NCBI RefSeq assembly: GCF_036507355.1
Contig: NZ_AP027877.1
Origin: Escherichia coli
GTDB lineage: Bacteria > Pseudomonadota > Gammaproteobacteria > Enterobacterales > Enterobacteriaceae
Strand: one strand, 5' to 3'
DNA length: 64,000 nucleotides
Of this stretch, positions 5,733-32,372 are shown in pieces; positions within the stretch are counted from its first letter, which is position 1; every line of letters begins with the position of its first letter. The position numbers and the translations under genes are program-made. The notes under the pieces are model-generated. The model had not been told where the DNA came from. It saw nothing but the letters and a program-made list of their open reading frames with translations, and did no database searches.

Positions 5733-5734
5733 GG

Positions 5735-5810
5735 TGGTGGGTGATGACGGGATCGAACCGCCGACCCCCTCCTTGTAAGGGAGGTGCTCTCCCAGCTGAG
5801 CTAATCACCC
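5735..5810 (-). tRNA. valT: tRNA-Val (UAC)
   Basis: 76-nt tRNA-Val sequence. Confidence 0.95.
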
Positions 5811-5845
5811 GATACTACGCTGGATACTACAACTAACTAGGTTAG

Positions 5846-5921
5846 TGGTGGGTCGTGCAGGATTCGAACCTGCGACCAATTGATTAAAAGTCAACTGCTC
5901 TACCAACTGAGCTAACGACCC
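5846..5921 (-). tRNA. lysT: tRNA-Lys (UUU)
   Basis: 76-nt tRNA-Lys sequence; first gene of the operon on the minus strand. Confidence 0.95.
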
Positions 5922-13433: not shown

Positions 13434-13448
13434 TTGACGACTCCTGTC

Positions 13449-15017
13449 TTAGCGTGCCGGCTGAGTAGTCGTGGAAGACTGCTCAAAGTGATAGCGACCG
13501 GTTTTCAGGCTGCTTGGGCCGAGGCGTGCAAACTTGAACATTAAGAACAATTCTGCCACCAGGAACAGGGTATACAGGCCGCAAATCAGCACCATTGAGA
13601 AGATGAGATCGCCTGCGGTCAGTGACGAGTTCGCCACAGCTGTCGGCAGCACTTCACCGATAGCCCACGGTTGGCGGCCATATTCAGCCACGAACCAGCC
13701 CGCTTCTACAGCAATCCACGGCAGCGGAATACCGTACAGCGCGGCGCGCAGCAGCCATTTTTTCTCGCCAATGCGGTTGCGGATAACACTCCAGAAAGAG
13801 AGCGCGATGATTGCCAGCAGCAGGAAGCCACACGCCACCATGATACGGAACGCGAAGTACAGCGGCGCTACACGCGGAATGGAGTCTTTGGTTGCCTGTT
13901 GAATCTGAGCTTCAGTCGCATCAGCCACGTTTGGCGTATAGCGTTTCAGCAGCAGACCATAACCGAGGTCTTTCTTCATGCTATTGAACTGGTCACGAAC
14001 CGCCTGGTCGGTAGAACCAGAACGCAGCTGTTCGAGCAGAGAGTACGCCTTCATCCCGTTACGAATGCGTTCTTCATGCTGCACCATCAGTTCTTTCAGG
14101 CCGATAACTGGAGTATCCACGGAACGCGTTGCAATGATGCCCAGCGCGTAAGGGATCTGGATCGCAAATTTGTTCGTCTCCTCTTCCTGATCAGGAATGC
14201 CGAACAGAGTAAAGGCAGCAGGCGCAGGTTGCGTTTCCCACTCGGCTTCAATAGCAGCCAGTTTGGTTTTCTGCACGTCGCCCATTTCGTAGCCGGATTC
14301 ATCACCCAGAACAATAACAGACAGAACGGCAGCCATACCGAAGCTGGCAGCGATAGCAAAGGAGCGTTTAGCGAAGGCGAAGTCACGACCTTTCAGCATA
14401 TACCATGCGCTGATACCGAGGATGAACATCGCGCCAGTCACATAACCAGACGCTACAGTGTGAACGAATTTCACCTGAGCAACCGGGTTAAGCACCAGCT
14501 CGGAGAAGCTCACCATCTCCATACGCATAGTTTCAAAGTTGAAATCGGACGCGATTGGGTTTTGCATCCAGCCGTTCGCAACCAGAATCCACAGTGCGGA
14601 CAGGTTTGAACCGAGCGCCACCAGCCAGGTGACACACATATGCTGAACTTTACCCAGACGATCCCAACCGAAGAAGAACAGACCTACAAAGGTGGATTCG
14701 AGGAAGAAGGCCATCAGACCTTCGATTGCCAGCGGCGCACCGAAGATATCCCCTACATAGTGGGAATAGTAAGACCAGTTAGTCCCGAACTGGAACTCCA
14801 TGGTCAGACCGGTAGCCACACCCAGAGCGAAGTTGATACCAAACAACTTGCCCCAGAACTTGGTCATATCTTTATAAATCTGTTTGCCGGAAAGGACGTA
14901 GACCGTTTCCATAATGGCCAGCAGGAACGCCATACCGAGCGTCAGTGGCACAAAAAGGAAGTGGTACATCGCGGTCAAGGCAAACTGTAAGCGCGACAGT
15001 TCGACTATATCTAACAT
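13449..15017 (-). CDS. cydA: cytochrome bd-I ubiquinol oxidase subunit I
   Basis: [41 protein letters not shown]... matches CydA; start at the second Met gives 522 aa. Confidence 0.95.
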
Positions 15018-15823
15018 CATGACTCCTTGCTCATCGCATGAAGACTCCGAGAGTGAACCCCGTTAGAAAGGGTCACACGCATGCCCCAATACAAAATTAT
15101 TTGCTCGCCTCTATCGTTGCCATTTCATCAAAAGAGGAAAAGACAATGATAAAAAAAGTTACAAATATGTTAATGAATAAACCAAATTGATCCCGTAATT
15201 ATATTACGCCGCAAAATCCTTACAATAAACAGGTTTTTATTGAGCAAATTTGCATTTTTCGACAGTGATCAATTTATAGCGAAATTGTCACGATCTCACC
15301 AATTTGATCTACGACAATTTATCGTGTTTTGCAGAATTTTTTCAAGAATTAAAAATTGATTTATATCAAAACCAATCAAATATGTTAATTATGTATAAAC
15401 CATAGATCATTGGTGATTTTATTGTTAATTTATTGTGAAATATTTATGCAACACAATTATTACAATGAAAAGGTATAGATAAAAAACCAGTATTTTATTT
15501 AACAGAACCGCCTTATCCACTTTTTATAATACCAATTGATTAGAGTAGCCAATTTGTTGCTATTTTACATAACATATTTTTATCAAAGTTAATTGATTGT
15601 TACCTTTATGAGCACCGACCGTAAGCCCGTTATGTTATTGTTTCATTAGTAATAATCACTTAAATGTATCGATGAAACAGGTATGACTTACCGGGAGTGA
15701 TTGTTTCTGAGTGAACAGAGGCCACTTTCGCCTGATAAATGAAAAATGAGCGATTTTTGCAAGTTAGTTTTTCTATAGCCGAGTACGCTCAGCGCCTCGC
15801 TTGATTACAATGAGGTTGCTGCT

Positions 15824-16768
15824 ATGAGTCCTGATAATATCGGTTCGGCTGTCAATCGCTTCTCAGGTTGGCCATCTAATGATTCTCTAAAAACAGATAA
15901 AGAATCAATGACATCACCCGTGACTGTGCAGGTAATAAAGATGATTGCCGCCATCCTTGACCCACATCGGATAGTCGTTGGAATCGATACACTTTATACA
16001 ACGCAGCGCGAAACATTTACCTCAGAGAGTCAACAGCTCATTGAATCAGCATTGCAAACACTTCATGTGATGAATTTAAATAATCTGGAAACAAATCGCG
16101 ATGAAGAAGGTCACTATCTGGCTTTTGAATATAACGTTGACACCTCTGACAGAATAACCGTTTCTGCTTATAATGAAAAAAAGCCTGGCTGCTATGGCCA
16201 ATGTCTTGTAATACAGGATGACGAAACAGACTTATTTAACCTGATAAAAATTAAAATTTTCGAAGCCAGGCATAATTATGTCGCTCAATTGATGAGCGAT
16301 CCGGAATTTATGTTCAAATTCAGTTATAGCGCTCAACAAAATAGATTAGAACCTCATCTTCTGGTTCCCGCTTATTTCCCTCTAAAAACAAACGAACCGG
16401 TTACGCAAGAGGATGTACTGTTACTTTATCGTTTCTTTAAAATGAATGATGATTTTAATAAATTAACATCAGATGAATACATGAGTATCCTGACACCTCT
16501 GATGAAGTGTGAGCGTAGCGTCCACGACAACAACAGGTATGTGACGGGCAAAGATACCCTTCTTCTGGACTATCCTCCTTCTGGTAACCAGATACATTTC
16601 CATGTTTTCCCTGACGAATCAGCAACACTAGTCCTTTATTTTTCAAACAATGACCTTGAATGTTTCGTCTTTGAAAGAGATATTCCTAGCCAGTATCGCT
16701 TTTTCAAAATGTTTACCAATCTGGCACTGGTTATAGATCAGTTAACCGAAGCCAATAAAATACTTTAA
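15824..16768 (+). CDS. hypothetical protein (314 aa), AT-rich island ORF of unknown function
   Basis: long ORF in AT-rich DNA at the edge of the island; no family recognised by eye; not part of the K-12 backbone as I recall it. Confidence 0.55.
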   Translation: MSPDNIGSAVNRFSGWPSNDSLKTDKESMTSPVTVQVIKMIAAILDPHRIVVGIDTLYTTQRETFTSESQQLIESALQTLHVMNLNNLETNRDEEGHYLAFEYNVDTSDRITVSAYNEKKPGCYGQCLVIQDDETDLFNLIKIKIFEARHNYVAQLMSDPEFMFKFSYSAQQNRLEPHLLVPAYFPLKTNEPVTQEDVLLLYRFFKMNDDFNKLTSDEYMSILTPLMKCERSVHDNNRYVTGKDTLLLDYPPSGNQIHFHVFPDESATLVLYFSNNDLECFVFERDIPSQYRFFKMFTNLALVIDQLTEANKIL

Positions 16769-16848
16769 TTTTCTATATATCCCTATGGCTAATATTGCTA
16801 AACAATGCCTGGGGATTAATTTTTATTACTCACGGAAAGATTTAAATA

Positions 16849-17271
16849 ATGATACCATCTCAGATCTCTTTCAATACCCTTCCAGTCAATGCAACATACG
16901 CTTCAGAGACAACAGTTGACACACAAAAATTCTCTGACATCCTCTACTCAGCGGGGTGTTCCCTAAAGGATATGGCTTATCTGAGCAGATGTCTGGCATC
17001 AATACACCCGACTATCGCCAAAAACATTTATGAAACAGAAAATCTCAGCGATCAAAAATTACTGCATATTGATTGCCGTAGTACAAATGAAATCAAGATA
17101 AATATCTTTTTTGGTCAGCAAAGAGAAGGGTTAATTGAAATTAGTTCTGACACAGTTATTTTTTCGATACTGTCTTCATTGATTGACTCCGCCATTTCTA
17201 AATTTCAACACCAAAACCCGGTTAACGGTTTAGTTAATCCTGAAATATTGTATGAGGATTATACTGATTAA
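16849..17271 (+). CDS. hypothetical protein (140 aa), small acidic protein of unknown function
   Basis: co-oriented 80 bp downstream of the 314-aa ORF, same AT-rich composition. Confidence 0.5.
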   Translation: MIPSQISFNTLPVNATYASETTVDTQKFSDILYSAGCSLKDMAYLSRCLASIHPTIAKNIYETENLSDQKLLHIDCRSTNEIKINIFFGQQREGLIEISSDTVIFSILSSLIDSAISKFQHQNPVNGLVNPEILYEDYTD

Positions 17272-17818
17272 ATCCACCCTGTCGCGAAAAATGGCCTGCG
17301 TTATTGCCAGACGTAATAAAACCTTTGATTAACGTTACTCATACTGGTAGCACCTTCATGTACCTCTCTTTTTTACGAAAAATCAAAAGAGCTAACTAAG
17401 GTCATAATTCGCATGAATCATTAACCATTTGTTATTTTCAACATTATTTTTACATTAAGCAGAGATGAATTGCAGTGAAATTCGACTTAAATCTTATGAA
17501 ATGCATTTACTCATGGCTAAAACCACGTCACAAAAATGCAAATTAGAAGTAGATCACAATTATCTCAATACATTAAATCAAGTTAATTTTAAAAATTTAA
17601 CATTCATGACATTAGTTGACATAACACACTGAATTAACATGGAAATTTAAAAACACACTTTAAACAATCATTTCCCGAAAGACATTTTGAAAATAGATCA
17701 ATTGCAACATTACGGTCAGATAAAGACACTCCTGTGATATTAAACCTGTGCCGTTATGAACGGCCATAAATACGACGTGTGTAACTTATTTTACTCTCTG
17801 TCTTACAAAGGATTACCC

Positions 17819-18268
17819 ATGAAGAAAGCAACACTTGTGATTGGCGTTATTGGCGCGGACTGCCATGCAGTAGGCAATAAAGTTCTGGACCGCGTTTTTA
17901 GCAACCACGACTTCAGAGTCATTAATCTGGGCGTAATGGTCAGCCAGGACGAATATATTGATGCTGCCATTGAAACTGGCGCTGACGCGATTGTCGTCTC
18001 CTCTATCTATGGGCATGGCGATATCGACTGTCTGGGCATGCGCGAACGCTGCATCGAGCGTGGACTGGGGGACATCCTGCTCTATGTGGGCGGTAACCTG
18101 GTGGTCGGAAAACATGACTTCGCTGACGTGGAAACCAAATTCAAAGAGATGGGATTTGATCGCGTCTTTGCCCCAAGTCATGACTTAGAAGATGTTTGTC
18201 AGCTGATGGCCCACGATATCAACCAACGTCATGACATTGATACTCGTATTCTTGAAGAGGCTATCTGA
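17819..18268 (+). CDS. glmS: glutamate mutase sigma (S) subunit, B12-binding (methylaspartate mutase small subunit)
   Basis: [24 protein letters not shown]... contains the DxHxxG cobalamin-binding motif and resembles Clostridium GlmS/MutS; start set at the Met preceded by aaaggatt. Confidence 0.88.
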
Positions 18269-19656
18269 TGCAAATCGTCTCTGTCGATATTGGATCGACG
18301 TGGACCAAAGCAGCCCTCTTCACCCGGGAGGGGGACGCGTTAACGTTGGTTAACCACGTACTGACCCCAACCACCACCCATCATCTGGCGAAGGGGTTTT
18401 TCTCCAGCCTGAACCAAGTGTTAAACGTAGATAATGCCCTCCCCCTGTTAAACAGCGGTGAGGTTGCATTGAAGTATTCCTCCTCTGCCAAAGGTGGGCT
18501 GGCGGTTGCCGCAATGGGATTGGTGCCTTCTATCACCCTGGAAACCGCGAAAGTAACCGCTCACTCTGCGGGTGCTAAAATTGCGCAATATTACGCCTAC
18601 AAGCTGAACCGCCGTGATATCCAGGCACTGGAAGAAACGCAGCCCGATATTCTCTTGTTCACCGGCGGCACCGACGGCGGAGAAGAAAGCTACGGACTGA
18701 ATAACGCCCGTGTGCTGGCAGAATCCAAACTCGACTGCGCCATTATTTATGCCGGAAACCGGGATATTCAGGACGAGGTGCAGGAGCTCCTCGGGCATAA
18801 AGACCTGACCATCGTCGACAATGTTCTGCCCGATCTTGACCATCCGAACCCTTTAGCCGCACGCCAGGCTATTTGCGACATATTCCTTAAACGCATCGTT
18901 AAAGGGAAAGGGCTGGATGTCATTGTTGATAAAACAGGCGAAGAACCAATGCCGACACCATGGACGGTCTTTGAACTGGTCAAGGCAATCAGTAACGTCG
19001 ATCACAGCTGGAAAGAGTTCATGCTGATCGACATGGGCGGCGCAACCACCGATGTTTATTCCGTCTGTGCCAACACGCTCTCGCCCGACACCGTTTTACA
19101 CGGCGTACCGGAACCCTTCGTAAAACGGACGGTGGAAGGCGATCTGGGAATGCGCGTCTCGGCAGTGGTGGTTGGTGAAAGTGCGAAAGAGTTAGTCAAT
19201 GTGAATTTTGCTCAGCAACCCGCACAGCTGGACGCTTTTTATCATTACCTCCGTCATCTAGTCGCTCATCCCGACTACTTACCCGCAAATGCAGAAGAGA
19301 AATATTTCGATACCGTCCTGGCCGGACTGTGTGTGGGTTATGCCACCGAAAGACATGCGGGCACCAAAAAAGAGGTCTGCACCTGCGTCGGCAATGTCGA
19401 TTTACAGATGGGACGTGACCTGACAACCGTGCGTAAAGTCGTCGGATCCGGCGGATGGCTCTCGCGTGCCAGTCAGTTCGATATGCATCACTGGTTGAAA
19501 TACCGCGAGTTAAACGACGACGGTAAACGCATTCTCTTACCGACCGAATTTGAATATTACCGCGATTCCCGGGGGCTATTACCACTGCTGGCAAACGTCG
19601 CCAGAGTCGATCCGCTGGCCGCCGCGCGCACCAGTATTCAATGCTTAACCCTATAA
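18268..19656 (+). CDS. glmL: glutamate mutase accessory protein GlmL/MutL (actin-fold ATPase)
   Basis: 462-aa ORF between the S and E subunit genes as in clostridial mutS-mutL-mutE operons. Confidence 0.8.
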   Translation: MQIVSVDIGSTWTKAALFTREGDALTLVNHVLTPTTTHHLAKGFFSSLNQVLNVDNALPLLNSGEVALKYSSSAKGGLAVAAMGLVPSITLETAKVTAHSAGAKIAQYYAYKLNRRDIQALEETQPDILLFTGGTDGGEESYGLNNARVLAESKLDCAIIYAGNRDIQDEVQELLGHKDLTIVDNVLPDLDHPNPLAARQAICDIFLKRIVKGKGLDVIVDKTGEEPMPTPWTVFELVKAISNVDHSWKEFMLIDMGGATTDVYSVCANTLSPDTVLHGVPEPFVKRTVEGDLGMRVSAVVVGESAKELVNVNFAQQPAQLDAFYHYLRHLVAHPDYLPANAEEKYFDTVLAGLCVGYATERHAGTKKEVCTCVGNVDLQMGRDLTTVRKVVGSGGWLSRASQFDMHHWLKYRELNDDGKRILLPTEFEYYRDSRGLLPLLANVARVDPLAAARTSIQCLTL

Positions 19657-19674
19657 CAATTAAGGCTGCAATCA

Positions 19675-21120
19675 ATGGAACTTCGAAATAAGAAATTAAC
19701 CCATGACGAATTCATGACCGAGCGGCAACAGGTACTGAAAACCTGGGAAACCGGCAAGGATGTTGAAAACTTTGAAGATGGCGTTAAATACCAACAAACC
19801 ATCCCTGAGCATAAACGCTTCTCTCTTGCGCTGCTGAAAGCAGACAAGGAAGGTAAAACCCTTAGCCAACCGCGCGCAGGTGTGGCGCTGATGGACGAAC
19901 ACATCGAACTGCTGAAAACACTACAAGAAGAGTGCGATCTGCTGCCAAGCACCATCGATGCATATACCCGTCTGAATCGGTACGAAGAAGCGGCTGTAGG
20001 GATTAAAAAATCCATCGAAGCCGGAACCTCTAAACTGAACGGTTTACCGGTAGTTAACCATGGTGTCGCAGCTTGCCGTCGCCTCACCGAAACCCTGCAA
20101 AAACCGCTACAGATCCGCCACGGCACGCCAGATGCGCGTCTGCTGGCTGAAATCTCAATGGCCAGCGGCTTTACCAGTTATGAAGGCGGTGGCATTTCCT
20201 ACAACATTCCGTATGCCAAACGCGTAACGCTGGAAAAATCGATCCGCGACTGGCAGTACTGCGACCGTTTAATGGGGATGTATGAAGAACACGGGATCCG
20301 CATCAACCGCGAACCGTTTGGCCCACTAACGGGTACGCTGATCCCGCCGTTTATCTCGCATTCTATCGCGATAATCGAAGGCTTGCTGGCACTGGAACAG
20401 GGTGTGAAATCTATCACCGTTGGTTATGGCCAGGTCGGCAGCCTGACGCAGGATGTTGCGGCGATCCAGTCTCTGCGTGAACTTGCACACGAATATTTTC
20501 AGAGCTATGGCTATACCGACTATGAATTGAGTACCGTGTTTCACCAGTGGATGGGCGGCTTTCCGGAAGACGAATCGAAAGCGTTCGCTATTATCTCCTG
20601 GGGTGCAGCCGTCGCGGGGATGTCTGGTGCCACCAAAGTCATCACCAAAAGTCCGCACGAAGCCTGGGGTATCCCGACTGCCGCTGCCAACATTCAGGGG
20701 CTGAAAGCCTCCCGCCAGATGCTCAACATGGTCAATGAGCAGAAATTCCCGCCGTGCCCTGCGGTTGAACTGGAAATTGAACTGATTAAGAGCGAGGTTC
20801 GCGCTGTACTGAATAAAGTGTTCGAACTGGGTAATGGTGATATTGCGCGCGGTACGGTGCTGGCATTTGAAGCGGGCGTACTGGATGTGCCATTTGCGCC
20901 AGCCGCCTGCAACGCGGGCAATATTCTTCCGGTCCGTGACAACACCGGCGCGATACGCGTACTGGAAGCCGGAGCCGTTCCATTGCCAAAAGATATTCTC
21001 GATCTCCACCACGATTACGTTGCGGAACGCGCACGCTTTGAAGGACGCCAACCGACATTCCAGATGGTTGTAGATGACATCAATGCTGTATCCCACAGTA
21101 AATTAATAGGAAGACCATAA
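19675..21120 (+). CDS. glmE: glutamate mutase epsilon (E) catalytic subunit
   Basis: 481-aa ORF MELRNKKLTHDEFMTERQQVL... with extended similarity to clostridial GlmE (QPRAGVALMDEHIELL, PSTIDAYTR, GGGISYNIPYAK, REPFGPLTGTL, FQMVVDD). Confidence 0.9.
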   Translation: MELRNKKLTHDEFMTERQQVLKTWETGKDVENFEDGVKYQQTIPEHKRFSLALLKADKEGKTLSQPRAGVALMDEHIELLKTLQEECDLLPSTIDAYTRLNRYEEAAVGIKKSIEAGTSKLNGLPVVNHGVAACRRLTETLQKPLQIRHGTPDARLLAEISMASGFTSYEGGGISYNIPYAKRVTLEKSIRDWQYCDRLMGMYEEHGIRINREPFGPLTGTLIPPFISHSIAIIEGLLALEQGVKSITVGYGQVGSLTQDVAAIQSLRELAHEYFQSYGYTDYELSTVFHQWMGGFPEDESKAFAIISWGAAVAGMSGATKVITKSPHEAWGIPTAAANIQGLKASRQMLNMVNEQKFPPCPAVELEIELIKSEVRAVLNKVFELGNGDIARGTVLAFEAGVLDVPFAPAACNAGNILPVRDNTGAIRVLEAGAVPLPKDILDLHHDYVAERARFEGRQPTFQMVVDDINAVSHSKLIGRP

Positions 21121-22361
21121 TGAAAATAAAACAGGCTCTGTTCACCGCTGGCTACTCCTCATTCTATTTCGATGACCAGCAGGCGATAAAAAACGGAGCG
21201 GGTCATGACGGCTTTTTTTATACCGGGGAGCCGGTAACACAGGGGTTTAACGCCGTTCGTCAGGCCGGGGAGTGCGTATCGGTACAGTTGATTCTGGAAA
21301 ACGGCGCGGTCGCTGTAGGTGACTGTGCTGCCGTACAGTATTCCGGGGCAGGTGGTCGCGACCCACTGTTCCTCGCAGAGCTCTTTATTCCGTTCCTCAA
21401 CGACCATATCAAGCCATTACTGGTAGGCCGCGATGTGGATGCTTTCCTGCCGAATGCCCGTTTCTTCGACAAATTGCGTATTGACGGCAACTTGCTGCAT
21501 ACCGCCGTGCGCTACGGATTATCACAGGCGCTGCTTGATGCTACCGCGCTGGCAACCGGCCGTCTGAAAACTGAAGTGGTCTGTGATGAATGGCAGTTGC
21601 CACGCGTGGCGGAATCCATTCCATTATTTGGTCAGAGCGGCGACGATCGATATATCGCCGTCGATAAGATGATCCTTAAGGGCATCGACGTGCTGCCCCA
21701 TGCGCTGATTAATAACGTCGAAGAGAAGCTGGGCTTTAAAGGTGAAAAACTGCGCGAATATGTCCGCTGGTTGTCGGATCGCATTCTAAGCAAGCGCACC
21801 AGCGCACGCTACCACCCAACCTTGCACATCGATGTATACGGCACTATCGGTCTGATCTTCGATATGGATCCGCTTCGCTGTGCGCAATACATCGCCAGCC
21901 TGGAAAAAGAAGCGCAAGGCCTGCCGCTCTACATTGAAGGGCCGGTCGATGCCGGTAACAAGCCCGATCAAATTCGCCTGCTGACCGCGATTACCAAAGA
22001 GCTGACGCGCCTCGGTTCCGGCGTGAAAATTGTGGCCGATGAATGGTGTAACACCTACCAGGATGTTGTTGATTTCACTGATGCCGCCAGTTGTCACATG
22101 GTGCAAATCAAAACCCCGGATCTGGGCAGTATTCACAACATCGTCGATGCGGTTCTTTACTGCAACAGCCACAGCATGGAAGCGTACCAGGGCGGCACCT
22201 GCAATGAAACTGATGTCAGTGCCCGCACCTGTGTCCACGTCGCCCTTGCCGCTCGCCCTATGCGTATGCTGGTAAAGCCAGGGATGGGCTTTGACGAAGG
22301 CCTCGATATCGTCTTCAACGAAATGAATCGTACTATCGCGCTGTTGCAGGCTAAGGATTAA
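21120..22361 (+). CDS. mal: 3-methylaspartate ammonia-lyase
   Basis: 413-aa ORF; motifs GDCAAVQYSGAGGRDPLF, PHALINNVEEKLG, HMVQIKTPDLG match clostridial methylaspartase (enolase superfamily). Confidence 0.9.
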   Translation: MKIKQALFTAGYSSFYFDDQQAIKNGAGHDGFFYTGEPVTQGFNAVRQAGECVSVQLILENGAVAVGDCAAVQYSGAGGRDPLFLAELFIPFLNDHIKPLLVGRDVDAFLPNARFFDKLRIDGNLLHTAVRYGLSQALLDATALATGRLKTEVVCDEWQLPRVAESIPLFGQSGDDRYIAVDKMILKGIDVLPHALINNVEEKLGFKGEKLREYVRWLSDRILSKRTSARYHPTLHIDVYGTIGLIFDMDPLRCAQYIASLEKEAQGLPLYIEGPVDAGNKPDQIRLLTAITKELTRLGSGVKIVADEWCNTYQDVVDFTDAASCHMVQIKTPDLGSIHNIVDAVLYCNSHSMEAYQGGTCNETDVSARTCVHVALAARPMRMLVKPGMGFDEGLDIVFNEMNRTIALLQAKD

Positions 22362-22364
22362 CAA

Positions 22365-22565
22365 ATGGCTCGTTCTTTTAAAGTCTTATCGCCAACAGCA
22401 ATCCTCGGGTATGGATTCCCGGAAGAGAGCTTCCGCAAAGCGATGGCAGAATCACCCGATCTGATCGCCGTTGATGCAGGCTCTTCCGATCCAGGCCCCC
22501 ACTACCTCGGGCAGGCAAACCGTTTACCGATCGCGCAGGGGTCAAGCGCGATCTGCGCTATATGA
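22365..22565 (+). CDS. N-terminal segment of a DUF1446 (AtuA-like) protein, separated from the main ORF by a frame change
   Basis: 66-aa ORF ending in ATGA overlap with the next ORF; the next ORF's frame is open upstream to 22475, so the two likely form one gene. Confidence 0.45.
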   Translation: MARSFKVLSPTAILGYGFPEESFRKAMAESPDLIAVDAGSSDPGPHYLGQANRLPIAQGSSAICAI

Positions 22566-23734
22566 TCACCGCAGGCGTGCAAAATAATATACCGGTGGTG
22601 ATCGGAACGGCCGGCGGTTCTGGTGCCGCTCCACACCTGGAGTGGTGCCGAGAAATAATTCATGAGATTGCCCAGGAAGAGCACCTCTCGTTCTCGATGG
22701 CGTTGATCCCGGCAGACGTTGACAAAGCCATCGTCCACCAGGCGCTGGATAACGGCAAAATCACGGCGCTGGATTTTGTCCCGCCGTTAACCCACGACGC
22801 GATTGACGAAAGTACGTATATCGTCGCGCAAATGGGCATCGAACCCTTCCAGCGGGCGCTAAAAGAAGGCGCGCAAGTGGTGCTGGGTGGGCGCGCTTAC
22901 GACCCGGCCTGCTTTGCTGCGCTACCGATCATGCAAGGCTTTGATGAAGGTCTGGCGCTGCATTGTGGGAAAATCCTTGAATGCGCGGCAATCGCCGCAA
23001 CGCCCGGCTCAGGCTCTGACTGTGCGATGGGCATCATTGATGACAACGGCTTTACGCTGAAGACATTTAATCCGAAGCGTAAATTTACCGAAACGTCAGC
23101 AGCTGCACACACACTGTATGAGAAATCCGATCCCTACTTCCTGCCAGGACCTGGCGGCGTGTTGAACCTGAAAGGCTGCACATTTAAAGCAGTCAATGAC
23201 GGCGAAGTCTACGTCAGCGGTTCTAAGCATGAAGAAACGCCGTATGCCCTGAAACTGGAAGGTGCACGACGGGTGGGCTTCCGCTGTCTGACCATCGCCG
23301 GAACGCGCGACCCGATTATGATCGCCGGGATCGATAAACTCATCGATGAAGTCAAAACCAGCGTTTCGCGTAACCTGTCGCTCGACGATGACAGCATTCG
23401 CATCAATTTCCACCTGTACGGCAAAAACGGGGTGATGGGAGACCATGAACCGATGCAAACTGCCGGGCATGAGCTGGGGATTGTTCTTGATGTAGTTGCA
23501 CCGACCCAGGAAATTGCCAATAGCGTTTGCTCGCTGGTGCGCTCTACCATGCTGCACTACGGCTATGAAAACCGCATCGCTACCGCAGGTAATCTGGCGT
23601 TCCCGTTCTCCCCTTCTGATATCCAGGGCGGGCCGGTATACGAATTTTCCATATATCACCTGATTGAAGCCAACGACGCTCTGCGTTTTGATTTCCATAT
23701 TGAACAGGTGACGCCAGAAGGAGTTCAGGCATGA
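22562..23734 (+). CDS. DUF1446 (AtuA-like) family protein, main part
   Basis: 390-aa ORF; combined with the upstream 66-aa ORF gives about 456 aa, the usual DUF1446 size; followed by its usual small DUF4387 partner. Confidence 0.65.
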   Translation: MITAGVQNNIPVVIGTAGGSGAAPHLEWCREIIHEIAQEEHLSFSMALIPADVDKAIVHQALDNGKITALDFVPPLTHDAIDESTYIVAQMGIEPFQRALKEGAQVVLGGRAYDPACFAALPIMQGFDEGLALHCGKILECAAIAATPGSGSDCAMGIIDDNGFTLKTFNPKRKFTETSAAAHTLYEKSDPYFLPGPGGVLNLKGCTFKAVNDGEVYVSGSKHEETPYALKLEGARRVGFRCLTIAGTRDPIMIAGIDKLIDEVKTSVSRNLSLDDDSIRINFHLYGKNGVMGDHEPMQTAGHELGIVLDVVAPTQEIANSVCSLVRSTMLHYGYENRIATAGNLAFPFSPSDIQGGPVYEFSIYHLIEANDALRFDFHIEQVTPEGVQA

Positions 23735-24048
23735 AACAGTCAATTGTCTCACTGGCGCAAGTCATTCGTTCGAAAAATGCCGGACCTTACGAACTGGTTT
23801 TAGATATTTTATTTAAAACGAAAGAAAACTATGAGCGAGTTAAATCATCAGGGCAATTAACCCCAGAACTGATTGCGCGCTTATATCATGTTGAACCTGA
23901 CTTTATTCATCGTATTGTCTGGTTTGATCCTTCTAACGCAGTAAAAATCGTCATGCCACGAGATATTATCTCCGGGAATGTAGGTGACAATGATGTCTAT
24001 GGTGCACAGCAACATGCACCTTTATTAAATATGAGTTTCGATTTGTAA
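23731..24048 (+). CDS. DUF4387 family small protein (partner of DUF1446/AtuA-like proteins)
   Basis: 105-aa ORF translationally coupled (ATGA overlap) to the DUF1446 ORF. Confidence 0.6.
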   Translation: MKQSIVSLAQVIRSKNAGPYELVLDILFKTKENYERVKSSGQLTPELIARLYHVEPDFIHRIVWFDPSNAVKIVMPRDIISGNVGDNDVYGAQQHAPLLNMSFDL

Positions 24049-24131
24049 AAATCCGAATACTTTTAGCCAACTGACATCCCGTCACTTATTGCAGTTCAAC
24101 ACTTCAGCTATTTGTAAGGTTGTAATAGCAG

Positions 24132-24163
24132 GTAGATGCCTGAATCTCTATTCAGGCATCTAC
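24132..24163 (+). terminator. strong stem-loop between the DUF4387 gene and the transporter gene (terminator or attenuator)
   Basis: perfect 14-bp inverted repeat gtagatgcctgaat/attcaggcatctac with 4-nt loop, followed by a T-rich stretch. Confidence 0.4.
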
Positions 24164-24208
24164 TTCTCCTGATTCTGATTTATCGCCGTGCACCTGATGG
24201 AGGAAAAA

Positions 24209-25489
24209 ATGAAGAAAATAAGTTTAACCACGATGATTCTTTTGGCGCTGGTACTTGGAATGATTATCGGCGTAGTGCTCAATAACACTGCTTCACCGGA
24301 AACAGCAAAACTCTATGCGCAAGAAATATCGATATTCACGACGATTTTCTTACGACTGATAAAAATGATTATCGCTCCGTTAGTGGTCTCTACCCTGGTG
24401 GTAGGTATTGCTAAAATGGGCGATGCCAAAGCCCTTGGTCGTATTTTTTCTAAAACACTCTTTTTATTTATTTGCGCCTCATTGCTGTCAATTGCCTTAG
24501 GCTTGATAACGGTAAATTTCTTCATGCCAGGCACAGGAATTAATTTTGTTGCACACGGTGCCGAAACCACAGGAGTGGTCGCGTCAGAACCCTTTACGCT
24601 AAAAGTATTTATTTCGCATGCTTTCCCCACCAGCATTGTCGATGCCATGGCGCACAATGAAATTTTGCAAATCGTGGTGTTCTCAATTTTCCTCGGCTGT
24701 AGCCTGACGGCGATTGGCGAGAAAGGCAGCGCCATCGTTCACGCCTTAGATTCGCTGGCACATGCCATGTTAAAGCTCACTGGCTACGTCATGCTCTTCG
24801 CTCCCCTGACCGTATTCGCCGCTATTTCAGCATTGATTGCTGAACGAGGACTGGCAGTTATGGTGAGCGCCGGGATCTTTATGGGTGAATTTTATTTCAC
24901 CATGTTATTACTTTGGGTGCTGCTTATCGGTCTGGCCATCGTTTATGTCGGCCCCTGCATCAGACGCCTGACCCGCGCCCTTTCGGAACCCGCCCTGCTG
25001 GCATTTACCACATCCAGTTCTGAAGCGGCTTTTCCGGGAACGCTTGAAAAACTGGAGCAATTTGGCGTTTCCCCCAAAATTGCCAGCTTTGTCTTACCCA
25101 TTGGCTACTCATTTAATCTCGTTGGATCAATGGCCTACTGCTCCTTCGCCACAGTTTTCATCGCCCAGGCCTGCAATATCCATTTATCCATCGGTGAGCA
25201 AATCACCATGCTGTTGATCCTGATGTTGACCTCGAAAGGAATGGCTGGCGTACCACGCGCCTCAATGGTGGTTATCGCCGCCACGCTCAACCAGTTCAAT
25301 ATTCCGGAAGCGGGGCTGATCTTGCTGATGGGCGTTGATCCGTTCCTTGATATGGGGCGTTCCGCGACAAACGTCATGAGCAACGCAATGGGCGCTGCGA
25401 TGGTGAGTCGGTGGGAAGGCGAACATTTCGGCGAGGGCTGTCGGGGTAAAGCATTAAAACCCAATGAATCGAACGTTGCTCTGCCCTGA
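24209..25489 (+). CDS. dicarboxylate/amino acid:cation symporter (DAACS family; glutamate/aspartate or C4-dicarboxylate transporter)
   Basis: polytopic membrane ORF with DAACS-like N-terminus; start chosen at MKKISL preceded by a GGAGGA ribosome-binding site (ORF track starts 21 nt earlier at 24188). Confidence 0.8.
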   Translation: MKKISLTTMILLALVLGMIIGVVLNNTASPETAKLYAQEISIFTTIFLRLIKMIIAPLVVSTLVVGIAKMGDAKALGRIFSKTLFLFICASLLSIALGLITVNFFMPGTGINFVAHGAETTGVVASEPFTLKVFISHAFPTSIVDAMAHNEILQIVVFSIFLGCSLTAIGEKGSAIVHALDSLAHAMLKLTGYVMLFAPLTVFAAISALIAERGLAVMVSAGIFMGEFYFTMLLLWVLLIGLAIVYVGPCIRRLTRALSEPALLAFTTSSSEAAFPGTLEKLEQFGVSPKIASFVLPIGYSFNLVGSMAYCSFATVFIAQACNIHLSIGEQITMLLILMLTSKGMAGVPRASMVVIAATLNQFNIPEAGLILLMGVDPFLDMGRSATNVMSNAMGAAMVSRWEGEHFGEGCRGKALKPNESNVALP

Positions 25490-25596
25490 GGGGGATCTTA
25501 AGCAATCAGAAGCCAATGACTACGCATTTTTATAAGCCGGATCATGAAGTTAGACGGCAATTAAGTAACACTAACGTTTAAGGTGAAAAGTGAAAT

Positions 25597-27249
25597 ATGT
25601 CCAAACCATTTATCTGGCAAGAACCGTTTCTACAAAATAAAGACGGTACAGAATATACATTAATTAGCGATCAACATATTACAGTAACGGAATTAGACGG
25701 CGAAGAAGTGATAAAAATCGCTCCTGAAGCATTAACGCTGCTTGCCCGGCAGGCATTTTATGAAGCCTCTTTTTTCTTACGTTCCGCTCATTTGCAACAG
25801 GTCGCCAGCATTCTTAACGATCAGCAGGCCAGCAGTAATGATAAATACGTTGCGTTGCAGTTATTACGTAATGCTGAAGTCTCAGCAAAAGGGGTATTAC
25901 CCAACTGTCAGGATACCGGCACCGCAACTATTGTTGCCAGTAAAGGGCAACAGATATGGACCGGAAGTAACGACGCCGAAGCTTTAAGTAAAGGCATTTA
26001 CAGTACTTTCCAGGAAAATAATCTGCGCTTTTCACAAAATGCGCCGCTGGATATGTATACCGAAGTCAATACGCAAACCAATCTCCCGGCGCAGATTGAT
26101 ATCAGCGCTGTCGCTGGTGATGAGTACCATTTTCTCTGTGTTAATAAAGGGGGCGGCTCCGCCAATAAAGCCGCGCTTTATCAGGAAACCAAATCCTTAT
26201 TGCAACCAGAAAAACTGACCGCATTTTTAATCGAAAAAATGAAATCGCTGGGCACCGCTGCCTGCCCGCCTTACCACATCGCCTTTGCCGTCGGAGGGCT
26301 TTCAGCCGATCAAACCTTAAAAGTTGCCAAGCTGGCCTCAACGAAATATTACGACAATTTGCCCACCAGCGGAAACGAGCAGGGACAAGCATTCCGTGAT
26401 ATTGAGCTGGAAAAAGCGTTGCTCGAGGCCAGTCAGCAATTTGGTATTGGTGCACAATTTGGGGGGAAATATTTCGCTCATGATATTCGCGTCATTCGTC
26501 TGCCGCGTCACGGTGGCTCTTGCCCGATAGCTATGGCGCTCTCCTGTTCTGCCGATCGCAATATCAAAGCAAAAATTAACAAACACGGTATCTGGCTAGA
26601 AAAACTCGAACACAATCCGGGGCAATATATTCCAGCCTCATTGCGGGAAGAAAATCACGCGCAACATGTACAACTGGATCTAAACCGTCCGTTGCGTGAC
26701 GTGATGCTGGATCTCGCCAGATTACCGGTAGGTACCCGCGTGTCGTTAAGTGGTCCCATCGTAGTGGCGCGCGATATCGCCCACGCCAAAATAAAAGCGC
26801 GGCTGGATAGCGGCGAATCGATGCCGGAGTACCTGAAGCATCATATTGTCTATTACGCTGGCCCGGCGAAAACACCGGAGAACATGGCCTGCGGTTCACT
26901 GGGTCCAACCACGGGCGGTCGAATGGATGGTTATGTCGATACCTTCCAGGCGGCCGGCGGCAGTCTGGTGATGTTATCGAAAGGTAACCGCAGCCAGCAG
27001 GTCACCGATGCCTGTCACAAACATGGCGGCTTCAATCTGGGAAGTATTGGCGGTGCAGCTGCGTTACTGGCGCAAGAATATGTCAAAAGTCTGCGTTGCC
27101 TGGAATACCCGGAGCTGGGTATGGAAGCGGTGTGGATGATGGAAGTGGAAAATCTGCCCGCATTCATCCTGGTAGATGATAAAGGCAATAATTTCTTTAG
27201 TCAGTTTGAGCAGCAACACCGCTGCGCCAGTTGCCCTGCGGGACATTAA
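25597..27249 (+). CDS. fumD: class I (Fe-S) fumarate hydratase homologue, mesaconase/fumarase FumD type
   Basis: 550-aa ORF collinear with E. coli FumA ([40 protein letters not shown]); clustered with glutamate mutase and methylaspartase as described for fumD. Confidence 0.85.
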
Positions 27250-27258
27250 GGAAAATGA

Positions 27259-27861
27259 ATGGAAGCGCGAATTTCAACTGAACGGCATGTGCAGCGCCAA
27301 CAGAAATTGAAGGAACAGGTCGATACGCGCGTCGCGGCGGCGATAGAGAAAAAAGGGATCTTGATTGTTTTCACCGGCAACGGCAAAGGGAAATCCACTG
27401 CCGCGTTTGGTACTGTGACGCGCGCGGTGGGTCATGGCAAAACGGTGGGGGTTGCGCAGTACATCAAGGGGCAATGGGACAACGGCGAATACAACCTTCT
27501 CCAGCCGCTGGGGGTTGAGTTTCATATTATGGGAACCGGTTTTACCTGGGAGACACAGAACCGGCAAGCGGATATCGACGCGGCGAAAGAGGTCTGGTCG
27601 GAAAGCAAACGGATGCTGGCTGACAAGCGTTACGACTTAGTGGTGCTTGATGAGCTGACCTATATGCTGGCTTACCATTATTTGGATACCGAAGAAGTGA
27701 TCGCTTCTCTGCAAAACCGCCCGGCACAACAAAGTGTCATTGTCACCGGACGCGGTTGCCACAGTCAGATATTAAAAATGGCGGATACGGTAAGCGAAAT
27801 CCGCCCCGTCAAACATGCTTTTGATAACGGCATTCAGGCCCAGCCGGGTATAGACTGGTAA
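27259..27861 (+). CDS. cob(I)yrinic acid a,c-diamide / cob(I)alamin adenosyltransferase (BtuR/CobA family)
   Basis: 200-aa ORF with P-loop GNGKGKSTAAFG and high overall similarity to E. coli BtuR. Confidence 0.85.
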   Translation: MEARISTERHVQRQQKLKEQVDTRVAAAIEKKGILIVFTGNGKGKSTAAFGTVTRAVGHGKTVGVAQYIKGQWDNGEYNLLQPLGVEFHIMGTGFTWETQNRQADIDAAKEVWSESKRMLADKRYDLVVLDELTYMLAYHYLDTEEVIASLQNRPAQQSVIVTGRGCHSQILKMADTVSEIRPVKHAFDNGIQAQPGIDW

Positions 27862-27864
27862 TAA

Positions 27865-27897
27865 CTGCGCCTGGCATCCCGCCAGGCGCAGGTTTTA
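27865..27897. terminator. bidirectional intrinsic terminator between the adenosyltransferase gene and the convergent LysR gene
   Basis: ctgcgcctggc-atcc-gccaggcgcag hairpin followed by gtttta. Confidence 0.6.
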
Positions 27898-28557
27898 CAT
27901 CTCCTGCGGTACGACCGATTTCGCCAGCAACCATTCACGAAATTGCTGCAAGTGCGGTGAGTCAGACTTCTCTTCCTGCCACGTCATAATAAAACGATTA
28001 CCGGTACGAATAGGCACATCACAGGGAATCACCATATCGCCACTATCCAAATCATGTTGAATAGCGAAACGTGGTAACAGCGCCACGCCGAGATTAGAGC
28101 GCACGGCGGCAATCAGCATTGAAAGCAAATCGAAACGTGGTCCGTTATTGACCAACGGACTGCTAACGCCAGATAAAGCAAACCACTCTTCCCAGCCAGT
28201 AATACGGGTGCTTTGATGCAGAAGCGGTAACTCAGTAAGCAGTTCTGCCACTGACAGCTTTTGATCGGACATTGCAAGCAAACTGCCGCTGCATACCGGC
28301 AAAATCTCCTCATCAAAGAGATATTCTACTTCCGCCCAGGGCGCGCAAAAATTTTCGCGCATAATGACAGCATCGTACTCCCGATTAAGAAAATCGCCGT
28401 TATTAGCTAAAGAATGAATATTAACAATAATATCGGGATGTAACTTTGTGAATTCATGTAAATTTGGGATCAACCAGTGGGTACTAAAAGTAGGATTAAC
28501 GGCAAGTTCAATAACCTGAACCGTAGGCTGCCAGGTCATAATGGTATTGGTATCGCG
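27895..28557 (-). pseudogene. LysR-family transcriptional regulator, C-terminal effector-domain portion (gene interrupted by IS1)
   Basis: 214-aa ORF from an internal Met; reading frame continues upstream (RDTNTI) to the IS1 junction. Confidence 0.8.
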
Positions 28558-28612
28558 GGTGATGCTGCCAACTTACTGATTTAGTGTATGATGGTGTTTT
28601 TGAGGTGCTCCA

Positions 28613-28888
28613 GTGGCTTCTGTTTCTATCAGCTGTCCCTCCTGTTCAGCTACTGACGGGGTGGTGCGTAACGGCAAAAGCACCGCCGGACATCAGCGCT
28701 ATCTCTGCTCTCACTGCCGTAAAACATGGCAACTGCAGTTCACTTACACCGCTTCTCAACCCGGTACGCACCAGAAAATCATTGATATGGCCATGAATGG
28801 CGTTGGATGCCGGGCAACAGCCCGCATTATGGGCGTTGGCCTCAACACGATTTTACGTCACTTAAAAAACTCAGGCCGCAGTCGGTAA
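28613..28888 (+). CDS. insA: IS1 protein InsA
   Basis: 91-aa [46 protein letters not shown]... identical in character to IS1 InsA. Confidence 0.95.
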
Positions 28889-29310
28889 CCTCGCGCATAC
28901 AGCCGGGCAGTGACGTCATCGTCTGCGCGGAAATGGACGAACAGTGGGGCTATGTCGGGGCTAAATCGCGCCAGCGCTGGCTGTTTTACGCGTATGACAG
29001 GCTCCGGAAGACGGTTGTTGCGCACGTATTCGGTGAACGCACGATGGCGACGCTGGGGCGTCTTATGAGCCTGCTGTCACCCTTTGACGTGGTGATATGG
29101 ATGACGGATGGCTGGCCGCTGTATGAATCCCGCCTGAAGGGAAAGCTGCACGTAATCAGCAAGCGATATACGCAGCGAATTGAGCGGCATAACCTGAATC
29201 TGAGGCAGCACCTGGCACGGCTGGGACGGAAGTCGCTGTCGTTCTCAAAATCGGTGGAGCTGCATGACAAAGTCATCGGGCATTATCTGAACATAAAACA
29301 CTATCAATAA
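28807..29310 (+). CDS. insB: IS1 transposase InsB frame (expressed as InsAB' by -1 frameshifting)
   Basis: 167-aa ORF in the -1 frame overlapping the insA 3' end, typical IS1 organisation. Confidence 0.9.
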
Positions 29311-29325
29311 GTTGGAGTCATTACC

Positions 29326-29577
29326 GGTATCGCGTTCCAGCTTATTTAATGTTTCTTTTACTATCCCCAGGTAATACTTCCCAGCATCATTAAGAAAAAT
29401 GCGTTTTTTAGAGTGTGAAAATAACGGAGTACGTAAAAATTCCTCCAGCGCACTTACTTGTCTGAATACTGCACTTTGGGTTAACGCTAACTCCTCTGCC
29501 GCTCTGGTATAACTTTCATGACGTGCGACGACCTCAAAAGTCACCAGCAGTTCCGTTTTAGGTATTTTCCCTCGCAT
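29326..29577 (-). pseudogene. LysR-family transcriptional regulator, N-terminal HTH portion (gene interrupted by IS1)
   Basis: MRGKIPKTELLVTFEVVARHESYTRAAEELALTQSAVFRQVSALEEFLRTPLF... is a LysR-type HTH; the frame runs into IS1 after ...KLERDT. Confidence 0.8.
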
Positions 29578-30243
29578 AATGCCGTCCCTTAAAAATAGTT
29601 TAAACCATCAAAAATACATTACTTATTACGAAGTAATGGTAACCAAAGCAGCAATAAATAATTTATAAGAATCATGATTGACATTTATAAACCAGTAAGC
29701 CTGGCGTGACAAATATCTTAATCAGATAATAATAATCCGAAAAGCACAGCGCCTTTCGAATTATCCGGAATCACATTAAGTGAAAATTATTAAATTGATA
29801 TCATTTATCATATCTGTGGATATTATGATAAACAATCAACAAAGATTTTATTTTTGATTTATAGCATATCCCTCTAAGAATTTTTGCGATGCTGCAATAT
29901 CCGGGGTAAAGACCCGATCCTGGCTGACAAATGGCACGACTTGACGAAAAGCGGTGAACATCGCTTTTGTTGATTTACTTAACGCTACGGTCAAACGCTG
30001 GGAAGCCAGTGCATCAGGTAACGATTCGAAATTCGCCGTCGTTCTTATTCGTGGCTTGCGGTCGGTTGCGGCAATCCACAGTGGCTGTGGTCATGCAGTC
30101 AAGCCTGCAGTCAGATTTCGACCGTGGTTAACCGTTTAAGGCATAAAAAAGGCCATCATACGATGGCCAACCATGTCGAAACCGACAGCCCTTCGCCATT
30201 CCTGTAGAGGGAAGCGGCGAGGGCTATTTCTTATTACAGATAT

Positions 30244-31113
30244 TTATTTCAGAACAGTTTTCAGTGCTTCACCGATATCCGCCAGGCTGCGAACGGTTTT
30301 CACGCCTGCGGCTTCCAGAGCAGCGAATTTCTCATCCGCAGTCCCTTTCCCACCGGCAATGATGGCACCCGCGTGGCCCATACGTTTGCCTTTCGGCGCA
30401 GTCACACCAGCGATGTAACCCACAACTGGCTTGGTAACGTGCTCTTTGATGTACGCAGCTGCTTCTTCTTCAGCGCTACCGCCGATCTCACCGATCATCA
30501 CGATCGCTTCGGTCTGCGGATCTTTTTCGAACATTTCGAGAATGTCGATAAAGTTAGAGCCAGGGATCGGGTCACCGCCGATACCGACACAGGTCGACTG
30601 ACCGAAACCGTAATCCGTGGTCTGTTTAACCGCTTCATAGGTCAGTGTACCGGAACGGGAAACGATACCCACTTTACCCGGTTTGTGAATGTGACCCGGT
30701 TGGATACCAATTTTGCATTCACCCGGGGTGATAACGCCTGGGCAGTTCGGGCCGATCATACGAACGCCGGCTTCATCCAGTTTCACTTTCACAGTCAGCA
30801 TATCCAGCGTCGGGATGCCTTCAGTGATGGTGATAATCAGTTTGATGCCTGCGTCGATGGCTTCCAGAATGGAGTCTTTGCAGAACGGTGCTGGTACGTA
30901 GATAACAGAAGCGGTAGCGCCAGTAGCAGCAACAGCTTCACGCACGGTGTTGAACACCGGCAGGCCGAGGTGGGTAGTACCGCCTTTACCTGGAGTTACG
31001 CCACCAACCATTTTGGTGCCGTATGCAATGGCCTGTTCAGAGTGGAAAGTCCCCTGGCTACCGGTAAAGCCCTGGCAGATAACCTTGGTGTTTTTATCAA
31101 TTAAAATGGACAT
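30244..31113 (-). CDS. sucD: succinyl-CoA synthetase alpha subunit
   Basis: 289-aa ORF matching SucD. Confidence 0.97.
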
Positions 31114-32279
31114 TATTTCCCCTCCACTGCGGCAACAACCTGCTGAGCTGCATCCGTCAGACCTTTTGCTGCAATAATATTCAGGCCGCTGTCAGCCAGT
31201 TTCTTCGCGCCGAGTTCGGCGTTGTTACCTTCCAGACGTACCACGACCGGTACGTTAACACCCACTTCCGCTACCGCGCCGATGATACCGTCAGCGATCA
31301 GATCGCAACGAACGATACCGCCGAAGATGTTAACCAGAACGGCTTTCACTTTGTCGTCAGAGAGGATGATTTTGAACGCTTCGGTTACACGTTCTTTGGT
31401 TGCGCCGCCGCCAACGTCCAGGAAGTTAGCCGGTTCTCCGCCGTGCAGTTTAACGATGTCCATCGTACCCATCGCCAGACCTGCGCCGTTAACCATACAA
31501 CCGATGTTACCGTCCAGCGCAACGTAGTTCAGTTCCCACTGTGCAGCCTGTGCTTCACGTGGATCTTCCTGCGACTGGTCACGCATTTCGCGCAGATCAG
31601 GCTGGCGGAACAGGGCGTTGCCATCAGCGCCCAGTTTGCCGTCGAGGCAAATCAGATCACCCTGTTTGGTGATGACCAGCGGGTTGATTTCGATCAACGC
31701 CAGGTCGCGCTCCAGGAAAATGGTCGCCAGGCCCATGAAGATTTTGGTGAACTGCTGAACCAGTTTACCTTCCAGACCCAGTTTGAACGCCAGCTCGCGT
31801 CCCTGATACGGCATCGGGCCAGTCAGCGGATCAAGCGCAACTTTGTGGATCAGGTGCGGAGTTTCTTCCGCCACTTTTTCGATTTCCACGCCGCCTTCGG
31901 TAGAGGCCATAAAGACCACGCGACGTGAACTACGGTCTACAACGGCACCGAGATACAGCTCTTTAGCGATATCGGTCGCCGCTTCAACCAGAATCTGGTT
32001 AACCGGTTGGCCATTGGCATCTGTTTGATACGTTACCAGACGCTTGCCCAGCCAGTTTTCTGCAAAAGCACGGATGTCTTCTTTACTGTTTACAACTTTC
32101 ACACCGCCCGCTTTACCGCGGCCACCAGCGTGAACCTGACATTTCACTACCCACGGACCGGCACCGATTTTTGAAGCGGCTTCTTCTGCTTCGCGCGGAG
32201 TAGTACAGGCATAACCCACCGGTGCTGGTAAGCCATAGCGGGCAAAAAGTTGTTTTGCCTGATATTCATGTAAGTTCAT
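31113..32279 (-). CDS. sucC: succinyl-CoA synthetase beta subunit
   Basis: 388-aa [23 protein letters not shown]... Confidence 0.97.
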
Positions 32280-32372
32280 GTGTTCTGTCCATCCTTCAGT
32301 AATCGTTATCTTTTAAACCGTAGACCGACACCCTATCCACGTCGGTCTACAGTGCAGGTGAAACTTAAACTA

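Follow-up and report, generated by a model that had tools for sequence, protein, structure and literature searches.

A probably decayed copy of the O157:H7 methylaspartate-pathway cluster at the cydA-sucD locus of Escherichia coli

The 64,000-nucleotide stretch of Escherichia coli contig NZ_AP027877.1 analysed here (the window) holds, between cydA and sucD, a variable segment that carries genes of a B12-dependent methylaspartate pathway. We conclude that this segment is very likely the enterobacterial methylaspartate-pathway (glutamate fermentation) cluster of O157:H7, present here as a decayed copy. Two lesions distinguish it: the gene for the large subunit of the predicted citramalate lyase, cmlA, is frameshifted, and the gene of the accompanying LysR-type regulator is interrupted by an IS1 element. 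The gene identities, the two lesions, the synteny and the distribution are results of this analysis, and the activities of FumD and CmlAB are taken from the literature and from naming in the Protein Data Bank (PDB). The pathway genes and their leader, with families judged against curated NCBIfam cut-offs, are as follows.

17272-17818: AT-rich leader/promoter region upstream of glmS, 547 bp, GC content 0.32
17819-18268, plus strand: glmS, B12-binding small subunit of glutamate (methylaspartate) mutase; NF002612, 253 bits (cut-off 110); 99.3% identical to Sakai
18268-19656, plus strand: glmL/mutL, glutamate mutase accessory (reactivating) protein; NF040745, 510 bits (cut-off 475)
19675-21120, plus strand: glmE, glutamate mutase catalytic subunit; TIGR01503, 864 bits (cut-off 390)
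21120-22361, plus strand: mal, 3-methylaspartate ammonia-lyase; TIGR01502, 542 bits (cut-off 286)
22365-23734, plus strand: cmlA (AtuA/DUF1446; Pfam AtuA), predicted citramalate lyase large subunit, frameshifted here
23731-24048, plus strand: cmlB (DUF4387), predicted citramalate lyase small subunit, intact; 100% identical to Sakai
24209-25489, plus strand: dicarboxylate/amino-acid:cation symporter of the DAACS (SDF) family; DctA model 312 bits and GltP model 302 bits, both below cut-off
25597-27249, plus strand: fumD, class I fumarase/mesaconase (PRK15392 type); NF011921, 1276 bits (cut-off 1060); below the FumA cut-off
27259-27861, plus strand: cobO/btuR-type (cobA/cobO) cob(I)alamin adenosyltransferase; TIGR00708, 247 bits (cut-off 168)

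A previous reading of the same letters, made without database searches (the sequence-only reading), had already named glmS, glmL, glmE, the methylaspartate ammonia-lyase, a fumD-type fumarase and a BtuR-like adenosyltransferase, and each of these scores above its curated cut-off. The glutamate mutase S and E subunits and the MutL/GlmL protein are all full length and above equivalog cut-offs, and the genes other than cmlA and lysR are likewise full length. The family of the DAACS transporter was also borne out, while its substrate cannot be assigned because the DctA and GltP models both score below cut-off; the gene adjoins cmlB also in Yersinia, Pseudescherichia and Aeromonas (L015-L017). No riboswitch (cobalamin or other) was matched in Rfam within 14900-30400 at E <= 1, no FNR site with one mismatch or fewer occurs in the leader upstream of glmS, and repeat and promoter scans of this leader returned nothing above chance.

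The cluster has been published, and the window holds an ordinary, partly inactivated copy of it. Exactly this cluster was described by Kronen and Berg (PLoS One 2015, PMC4682846), who put its frequency at 26.5% in E. coli and at 90.6% in O157:H7. Over 13.2 kb the window segment is 99.2% identical in DNA to O157:H7 Sakai, to EDL933 and to many others, and its gene order is that of Sakai ECs_0755-ECs_0767 at cydA-sucD, with proteins 95.7-100% identical, so that the link to O157:H7 drawn in the sequence-only reading holds in order, locus and DNA identity. The Sakai cluster also bears the same scars of hutH and rtcB described below, but has neither an IS1 in lysR nor the 1-bp deletion in cmlA. With carriage defined as at least 80% of the cluster matched, 1117 of the 5426 complete E. 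coli genomes (20.6%) proved to be carriers. FumD was named and characterized as a mesaconase/fumarase in O157:H7 (ATCC 700728), with a kcat/Km for mesaconate of 2e6 M-1 s-1 (PMC4682846), and the window FumD is 98.7% identical to the Sakai protein ECs_0757. The same study detected neither a citramalate-cleaving activity nor a condition that led to expression of the cluster, described what becomes of citramalate as unclear, and detected no flux or growth on glutamate in O157:H7 (PMC4682846), in agreement with the earlier statement that the physiological role is still unresolved.

An intact copy of this cluster would work as a catabolic route for glutamate. The DAACS symporter would import the substrate, presumably glutamate, which the AdoCbl (adenosylcobalamin)-dependent mutase GlmS/GlmE would convert from the L-form into (2S,3S)-3-methylaspartate; GlmL would keep the mutase active as its reactivase, and CobO would supply the adenosylcobalamin. 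Methylaspartate ammonia-lyase would then release NH3 and form mesaconate, FumD would hydrate mesaconate to (S)-citramalate, a step biochemically shown for the O157:H7 enzyme, and the two-subunit CmlAB would split citramalate into pyruvate and acetate, with the LysR-type regulator that accompanies the cluster as its presumed activator. Within this scheme we infer the function of LysR, the substrate of the transporter and the physiological role, as well as the loss of function in this strain. The scheme parallels the methylaspartate pathway of Clostridium tetanomorphum, which also proceeds from glutamate via methylaspartate, mesaconate and (S)-citramalate to pyruvate and acetate, and whose GlmS/E, MutL and Mal are homologous. 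However, C. tetanomorphum uses a two-subunit MesAB mesaconase instead of the single-chain class I fumarase FumD, a CitDEF-type acyl-carrier lyase instead of CmlAB (AtuA plus DUF4387) and a GntR instead of a LysR regulator.

The assignment of the last step concerns one of the 'two unknown gene pairs' of the sequence-only reading; one of these pairs, treated further below, remains without a family, whereas the AtuA/DUF4387 pair matches citramalate lyase. The intact E. coli cmlA product (L001) aligns over its full length with PDB 9ERQ_A at ~90% identity (E = 9e-292), and the DUF4387 protein of the window matches 9ERQ_B, 'citramalate lyase subunit B' (E = 5e-57). The depositors of 9ERQ and 9EVF name the chains 'Citramalate lyase, subunit A (cmlA)' and 'subunit B (cmlB)'. 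The Cml enzyme (cmlAB) of Raoultella planticola, provided as a gift by the Berg laboratory, is used to split citramalate into pyruvate and acetate, and Cml-dependent growth on mesaconate and acetyl-CoA labelling are presented in the same preprint (10.64898/2026.01.16.699985). The resemblance to the R. planticola pair (9ERQ, 9EVF) extends to the position downstream of mal; the differences are that cmlA is frameshifted in the window and that the activity of the E. coli enzyme is a prediction. In E. coli the two genes are adjacent and overlapping, and the pair is kept after mal in five more distant genomes (L012, L013, L015-L017): a Riflebacteria genome and one further genome (L012, L013) have preserved the gene order glmS-mutL-glmE-mal-AtuA-DUF4387 and have a fumarase close by, and the same order recurs in Yersinia, Pseudescherichia and Aeromonas. 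This synteny with glm-mal lends independent support to the assignment. On the basis of the depositors' names and of one preprint using the enzyme, the AtuA/DUF4387 pair thus corresponds to a putative citramalate lyase CmlA/CmlB, in which case intact copies of the cluster would encode the entire route by which glutamate yields pyruvate, acetate and NH3.

Public annotations name this pair differently. In the RefSeq record of Sakai (L007, 10472-12156), cmlA appears as a second '3-methylaspartate ammonia-lyase' and cmlB carries the name 'acyl-CoA synthetase', and the PGAP/RefSeq names are 'AtuA family' and 'DUF4387'; in view of PDB 9ERQ/9EVF, both sets of labels are outdated. The GC content drops abruptly inside this one operon, from 0.547 in cmlA to 0.384 in the overlapping cmlB. 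Directly after cmlB, L012 (9712-10665) and L013 (9677-10618) encode a conserved protein of 313-317 aa that has the Walker-A motif GAEGxGKST and lacks a Pfam match, whose two copies are 62% identical across phyla and which is missing from the E. coli cluster.

In the window, an intact citramalate lyase is not encoded, whereas the copies of L001, L005 and L007 do encode one. Relative to L001, L002, L005 and Sakai, the window cmlA has lost 1 bp at ~22506-22509, where a run of four G is reduced to three (G4 to G3), and the frame is shifted after codon 49. This G3 deletion occurs in 0 of 1120 cmlA-bearing E. coli genomes. Within the N-terminal 66 residues of CmlA, more than 35 positions do not vary among homologues with identities down to 62%, so that neither the 49-residue product nor a product restarted at M67 is likely to be active. 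The second lesion lies at the other end of the cluster, where the following features are found.

27865-27891: GC-rich hairpin with an 11-bp stem between the convergent cobO and lysR, likely a bidirectional terminator
27895-28557, minus strand: 3' part of lysR, effector-binding domain, ~residues 85-301; GcvA-like LysR substrate domain; matches Sakai LysR residues 77-301
28558-29325, plus strand: IS1 in lysR, 768 bp, insA/insB, with terminal inverted repeats
29326-29577, minus strand: 5' part of lysR, helix-turn-helix domain, residues 1-84

The presence of a LysR-family regulator had been recognized before, but that the gene is split by IS1 had been missed. The interruption falls at codon 84/85, and the element is flanked by a 9-bp target duplication, GGTATCGCG, at 28549-28557 and 29326-29334. 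The IS1-lysR junction is absent from the 5426 complete E. coli genomes and from the GTDB species representatives. A LysR gene occurs with the cluster in four contexts, at cydA-sucD both in E. coli and in Pseudescherichia, and at unrelated loci in Yersinia and in Aeromonas, and from this co-occurrence LysR would be the regulator, presumably an activator, of the cluster. IS1 has landed near lysR independently in three strains (window 28558-29325; L001 17319-18086; L009 2806-3573). In strain MEW the element is found 269 bp beyond the site in the window, upstream of lysR; in EC2641 a truncated transporter gene lies on one side of it and a truncated lysR on the other, fumD and cobO having been lost in an IS1-associated deletion. 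Such repeated IS1 strikes near lysR, in at least three strains, and the scars of a lost hut operon described below suggest relaxed selection on the cluster.

With cmlA frameshifted and lysR cut by IS1, the genetic potential of the window is compromised. The sequence-only reading had credited it with the conversion of glutamate via mesaconate to (S)-citramalate, and the enzymes for these steps are indeed present; however, the route of intact copies would run past citramalate through CmlAB. In the window it should stall at citramalate, and the cluster is probably without its activator. The copy is therefore probably a decayed, partly inactivated, private derivative that has lost its last step and its regulation.

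The best-surviving alternative is that this strain has a fully functional module, the frameshift being a homopolymer sequencing error and LysR being either dispensable or a repressor whose disruption by IS1 derepresses the operon. The cmlA deletion does sit in a G4 run, all other genes are intact and highly similar to those of Sakai, and the cluster is silent even with an intact lysR, so that loss of LysR need not lower expression further. However, the clean 9-bp target duplication makes the IS1 insertion certainly real, and GcvA-like LysR regulators that accompany catabolic operons are usually activators. The lack of the G3 allele among the cmlA-bearing genomes is compatible with an error or a private mutation alike. 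We consider a fully functional module unlikely.

Several observations count against regarding the segment as a glutamate-fermenting pathway that has decayed in this strain. The cmlA deletion, lying in a G homopolymer, could be a sequencing error, and a restart at M67 (ATG at 22562) could yield a truncated CmlA. A primary publication on CmlAB was not found in the literature searched, the assignment being drawn from depositor names and one preprint. The transporter falls below the cut-offs of both GltP and DctA, and the regulatory role of LysR is derived solely from co-occurrence. In addition, methylaspartate ammonia-lyase activity went undetected in O157:H7 under any condition tried (PMC4682846), and the E. 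coli cluster has never been linked to any growth or expression phenotype. These points notwithstanding, we hold a decayed copy of the O157:H7 cluster to be the most fitting description of the segment, whose surroundings are listed next.

12294-15020, minus strand: cydB/cydA, left of the variable segment
13449-15020, minus strand: cydA, left backbone flank; protein 100% identical to Sakai CydA; annotated as cydA in all compared genomes
15021-15394: cydA upstream regulatory region, common to K-12-type genomes, containing a perfect FNR consensus
15395-30141: variable (accessory) segment relative to K-12-type genomes, BLAST boundaries
30151-30168: terminator-like hairpin at the sucD flank
30244-31113, minus strand: sucD, right backbone flank; protein 100% identical to Sakai
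30244-32279, minus strand: sucD/sucC, right of the variable segment

The flanks are cydA and sucD, as first read, and the open reading frames (ORFs) between them are foreign to K-12. Homology to HB101 and other K-12-type genomes stops at 15394 and restarts at 30141, while against strains that carry a tetratricopeptide repeat (TPR) gene at the locus the left homology runs on to 15659 (BLAST); the earlier limits of 15824-29870 were approximate and slightly narrow. Besides the cluster, the segment holds a pair of orphan genes at its left end and gene remnants at its right end.

15824-16768, plus strand: orphan ORF, 314 aa, homologue of ECs_0767, GC content 0.385; not in the pathway module
16849-17271, plus strand: orphan ORF, 140 aa, homologue of ECs_0766, GC content 0.366; 95.7% identical to Sakai ECs_0766
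29851-30039, minus strand: two remnants of hutH (histidine ammonia-lyase), residues 511-556 and 378-397 (tblastn), with a DNA match to the hut operon of EC17GD31
30043-30145, plus strand: two remnants of the rtcB 3' end, abutting the sucD downstream region

This segment had been described as one island of ~14 kb, a view that does not survive comparison with other genomes, for it is a mosaic in which the orphan pair and the cluster each occur without the other. An Escherichia relative with ~89% identical flanks (L011) has a 63%-identical homologue of the 314-aa orphan beside cydA and no glm cluster, and Pseudescherichia vulneris (L016, 3005-16743) has glm-mal-cmlAB-transporter-fumD-lysR at cydA-sucD without cobO, the orphan pair, hut or mng. 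The orphan pair is therefore an independent resident of the locus. The P. vulneris arrangement further suggests that the association of the cluster with the locus is older than E. coli, or else that it was transferred through flanking homology. Neither orphan ORF has a match in NCBIfam, Pfam, PADLOC or PHROG; the 314-aa protein falls in only 5 protein clusters among 5.8 billion, and its AlphaFold2 model (pLDDT 46) is unusable. That it might be the P-loop protein of 313-317 aa found after cmlB in other phyla was ruled out (E = 2.7).

The mngRAB genes that K-12 has at this position were not replaced by the cluster. The reported lack of mngR, mngA and mngB from the interval is correct, since tblastn found no MngR, MngA or MngB homologue in the whole 64-kb window (all E > 0.3). 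However, the wording 'in their place' fails: some strains hold the cluster and mngRAB together (L002), others have neither (L003), and others have a TPR gene instead (L004). At least five arrangements of the locus exist, namely mngRAB only (K-12), the cluster with rtcB and mngRAB, the cluster with hut and rtcB, the cluster with scars only (O157 and the window), and a TPR gene, whether mngRAB is present or not. The gap between cydA and sucD is an indel hot spot, with no one-for-one replacement.

That the segment is instead a classical mobile genomic island, which entered by site-specific integration and displaced mngRAB, appears very improbable. Such an origin would fit its being missing from K-12 and present in only ~21% of E. 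coli, as well as the low-GC stretches at its left end. The GC comparison, however, shows no contrast for the operon, whose genes have a backbone-like GC content of 0.49-0.55, and confines the low values (0.32-0.39) to the region around the two orphan ORFs and to cmlB. Neither an integrase nor a tRNA gene occurs among the segment's ORFs and annotated features, and between its two junctions direct repeats amount to chance-level matches of 14 nt or fewer. The co-existence of the cluster with mngRAB and the strains with neither or with the TPR gene also speak against displacement, and the P. vulneris cluster at the same locus suggests that a long-established resident has been worn down by deletions and was not newly inserted. 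A haloarchaeal-type methylaspartate cycle (acetate assimilation via mesaconyl-CoA) or a biosynthetic supply of 3-methylaspartate, in place of catabolism to pyruvate and acetate, is extremely improbable, since no mesaconate CoA-transferase, mesaconyl-CoA hydratase, beta-methylmalyl-CoA lyase, or non-ribosomal peptide or polyketide synthase (NRPS/PKS) is encoded among the ORFs of 15395-30141, and a mesaconase and a predicted citramalate lyase are present instead.

Some features of the surrounding backbone deserve mention in their own right. The perfect FNR consensus upstream of cydA, TTGATnnnnATCAA, lies at 15356-15369 in K-12-shared backbone, 25 bp from the island junction, and a second perfect copy of TTGATnnnnATCAA lies at 31684-31697, inside sucC. 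In the sucB(odhB)-sucC intergenic region (32329-32342), only 14 bp of unmatched sequence are present here, where ABW_A19 (L005) has 286 bp and HB101 (L006) has 195 bp; this is a variable element, possibly of the repetitive extragenic palindrome or bacterial interspersed mosaic element (REP/BIME) kind. A minus-strand array of seven tRNA genes at 5120-5921, five tRNA-Lys (UUU) and two tRNA-Val (UAC), equals the lysT-valT cluster of K-12 and explains every self-repeat detected in the window.

The right end of the segment records an earlier, longer state of the decayed cluster. The spacer between lysR and sucD (29596-30141) contains four fragments of hutH and rtcB, 40-138 bp each, and of an intact Hut operon (hutH, hutU, hutI, hutG) only the two hutH fragments, of 46 and 20 codons, are left in the window. 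In 144 of the 5426 genomes (~2.7%), including EC17GD31, an intact hut-glm-cml form exists in which a full hutH-hutG-hutI-hutD-permease-hutU set is followed by rtcB and then sucD. The extended island of EC17GD31 and of strains of the sequence type (ST) 648 type (L010) is identical in content to the window in its left part up to lysR, at 98.2%, but has intact hut genes and rtcB between lysR and sucD (L010 23236-33132) where the window has fragments only. Compared with this form, the window and Sakai show a 9081-bp deletion and two small ones. The hut and rtcB scars thus mean that the O157-type arrangement arose by a ~9-kb deletion from a longer hut-glm form, which would connect histidine via glutamate with pyruvate and acetate.

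One may go further and ask whether the ancestral E. coli element was a ~24-kb hut-glm-cml island that encoded a complete B12-dependent route from histidine via glutamate to pyruvate and acetate, with the O157-type cluster as its truncated relic. We put this forward tentatively, as a possibility that we would sooner expect to fail than to hold. No paper describing the E. coli hut-glm adjacency was found in the literature searched. A comparable coupling is known from the gut Firmicute Blautia coccoides, whose oxidative histidine pathway joins Hut, leading to glutamate, with the methylaspartate pathway to short-chain acids (10.64898/2026.06.22.733842); in that study, however, E. coli served as a non-histidine-metabolizing control and hut-bearing E. 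coli lay outside its scope, and the window has lost hut. If such an ancestry were true, the O157-type cluster would be severed from its feed and from its inducer, be it histidine, urocanate or a Hut intermediate. Its status as a relic would explain the lack of expressing conditions, as well as the IS1 hits and frameshifts such as those in the window, and the hut-carrying strains would be the proper choice for demonstrating how the pathway works physiologically.

For the biology of the cluster in E. coli, the main consequence is that the last missing enzyme, predicted here to be CmlAB, has since been identified, by which the question of the fate of citramalate is largely closed. For finding an inducing condition, hut-carrying E. 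coli would be better candidates than O157:H7, and the strain of the window would be ill suited to this. The scars of hut, with the repeated IS1 hits, add a modest evolutionary footnote.

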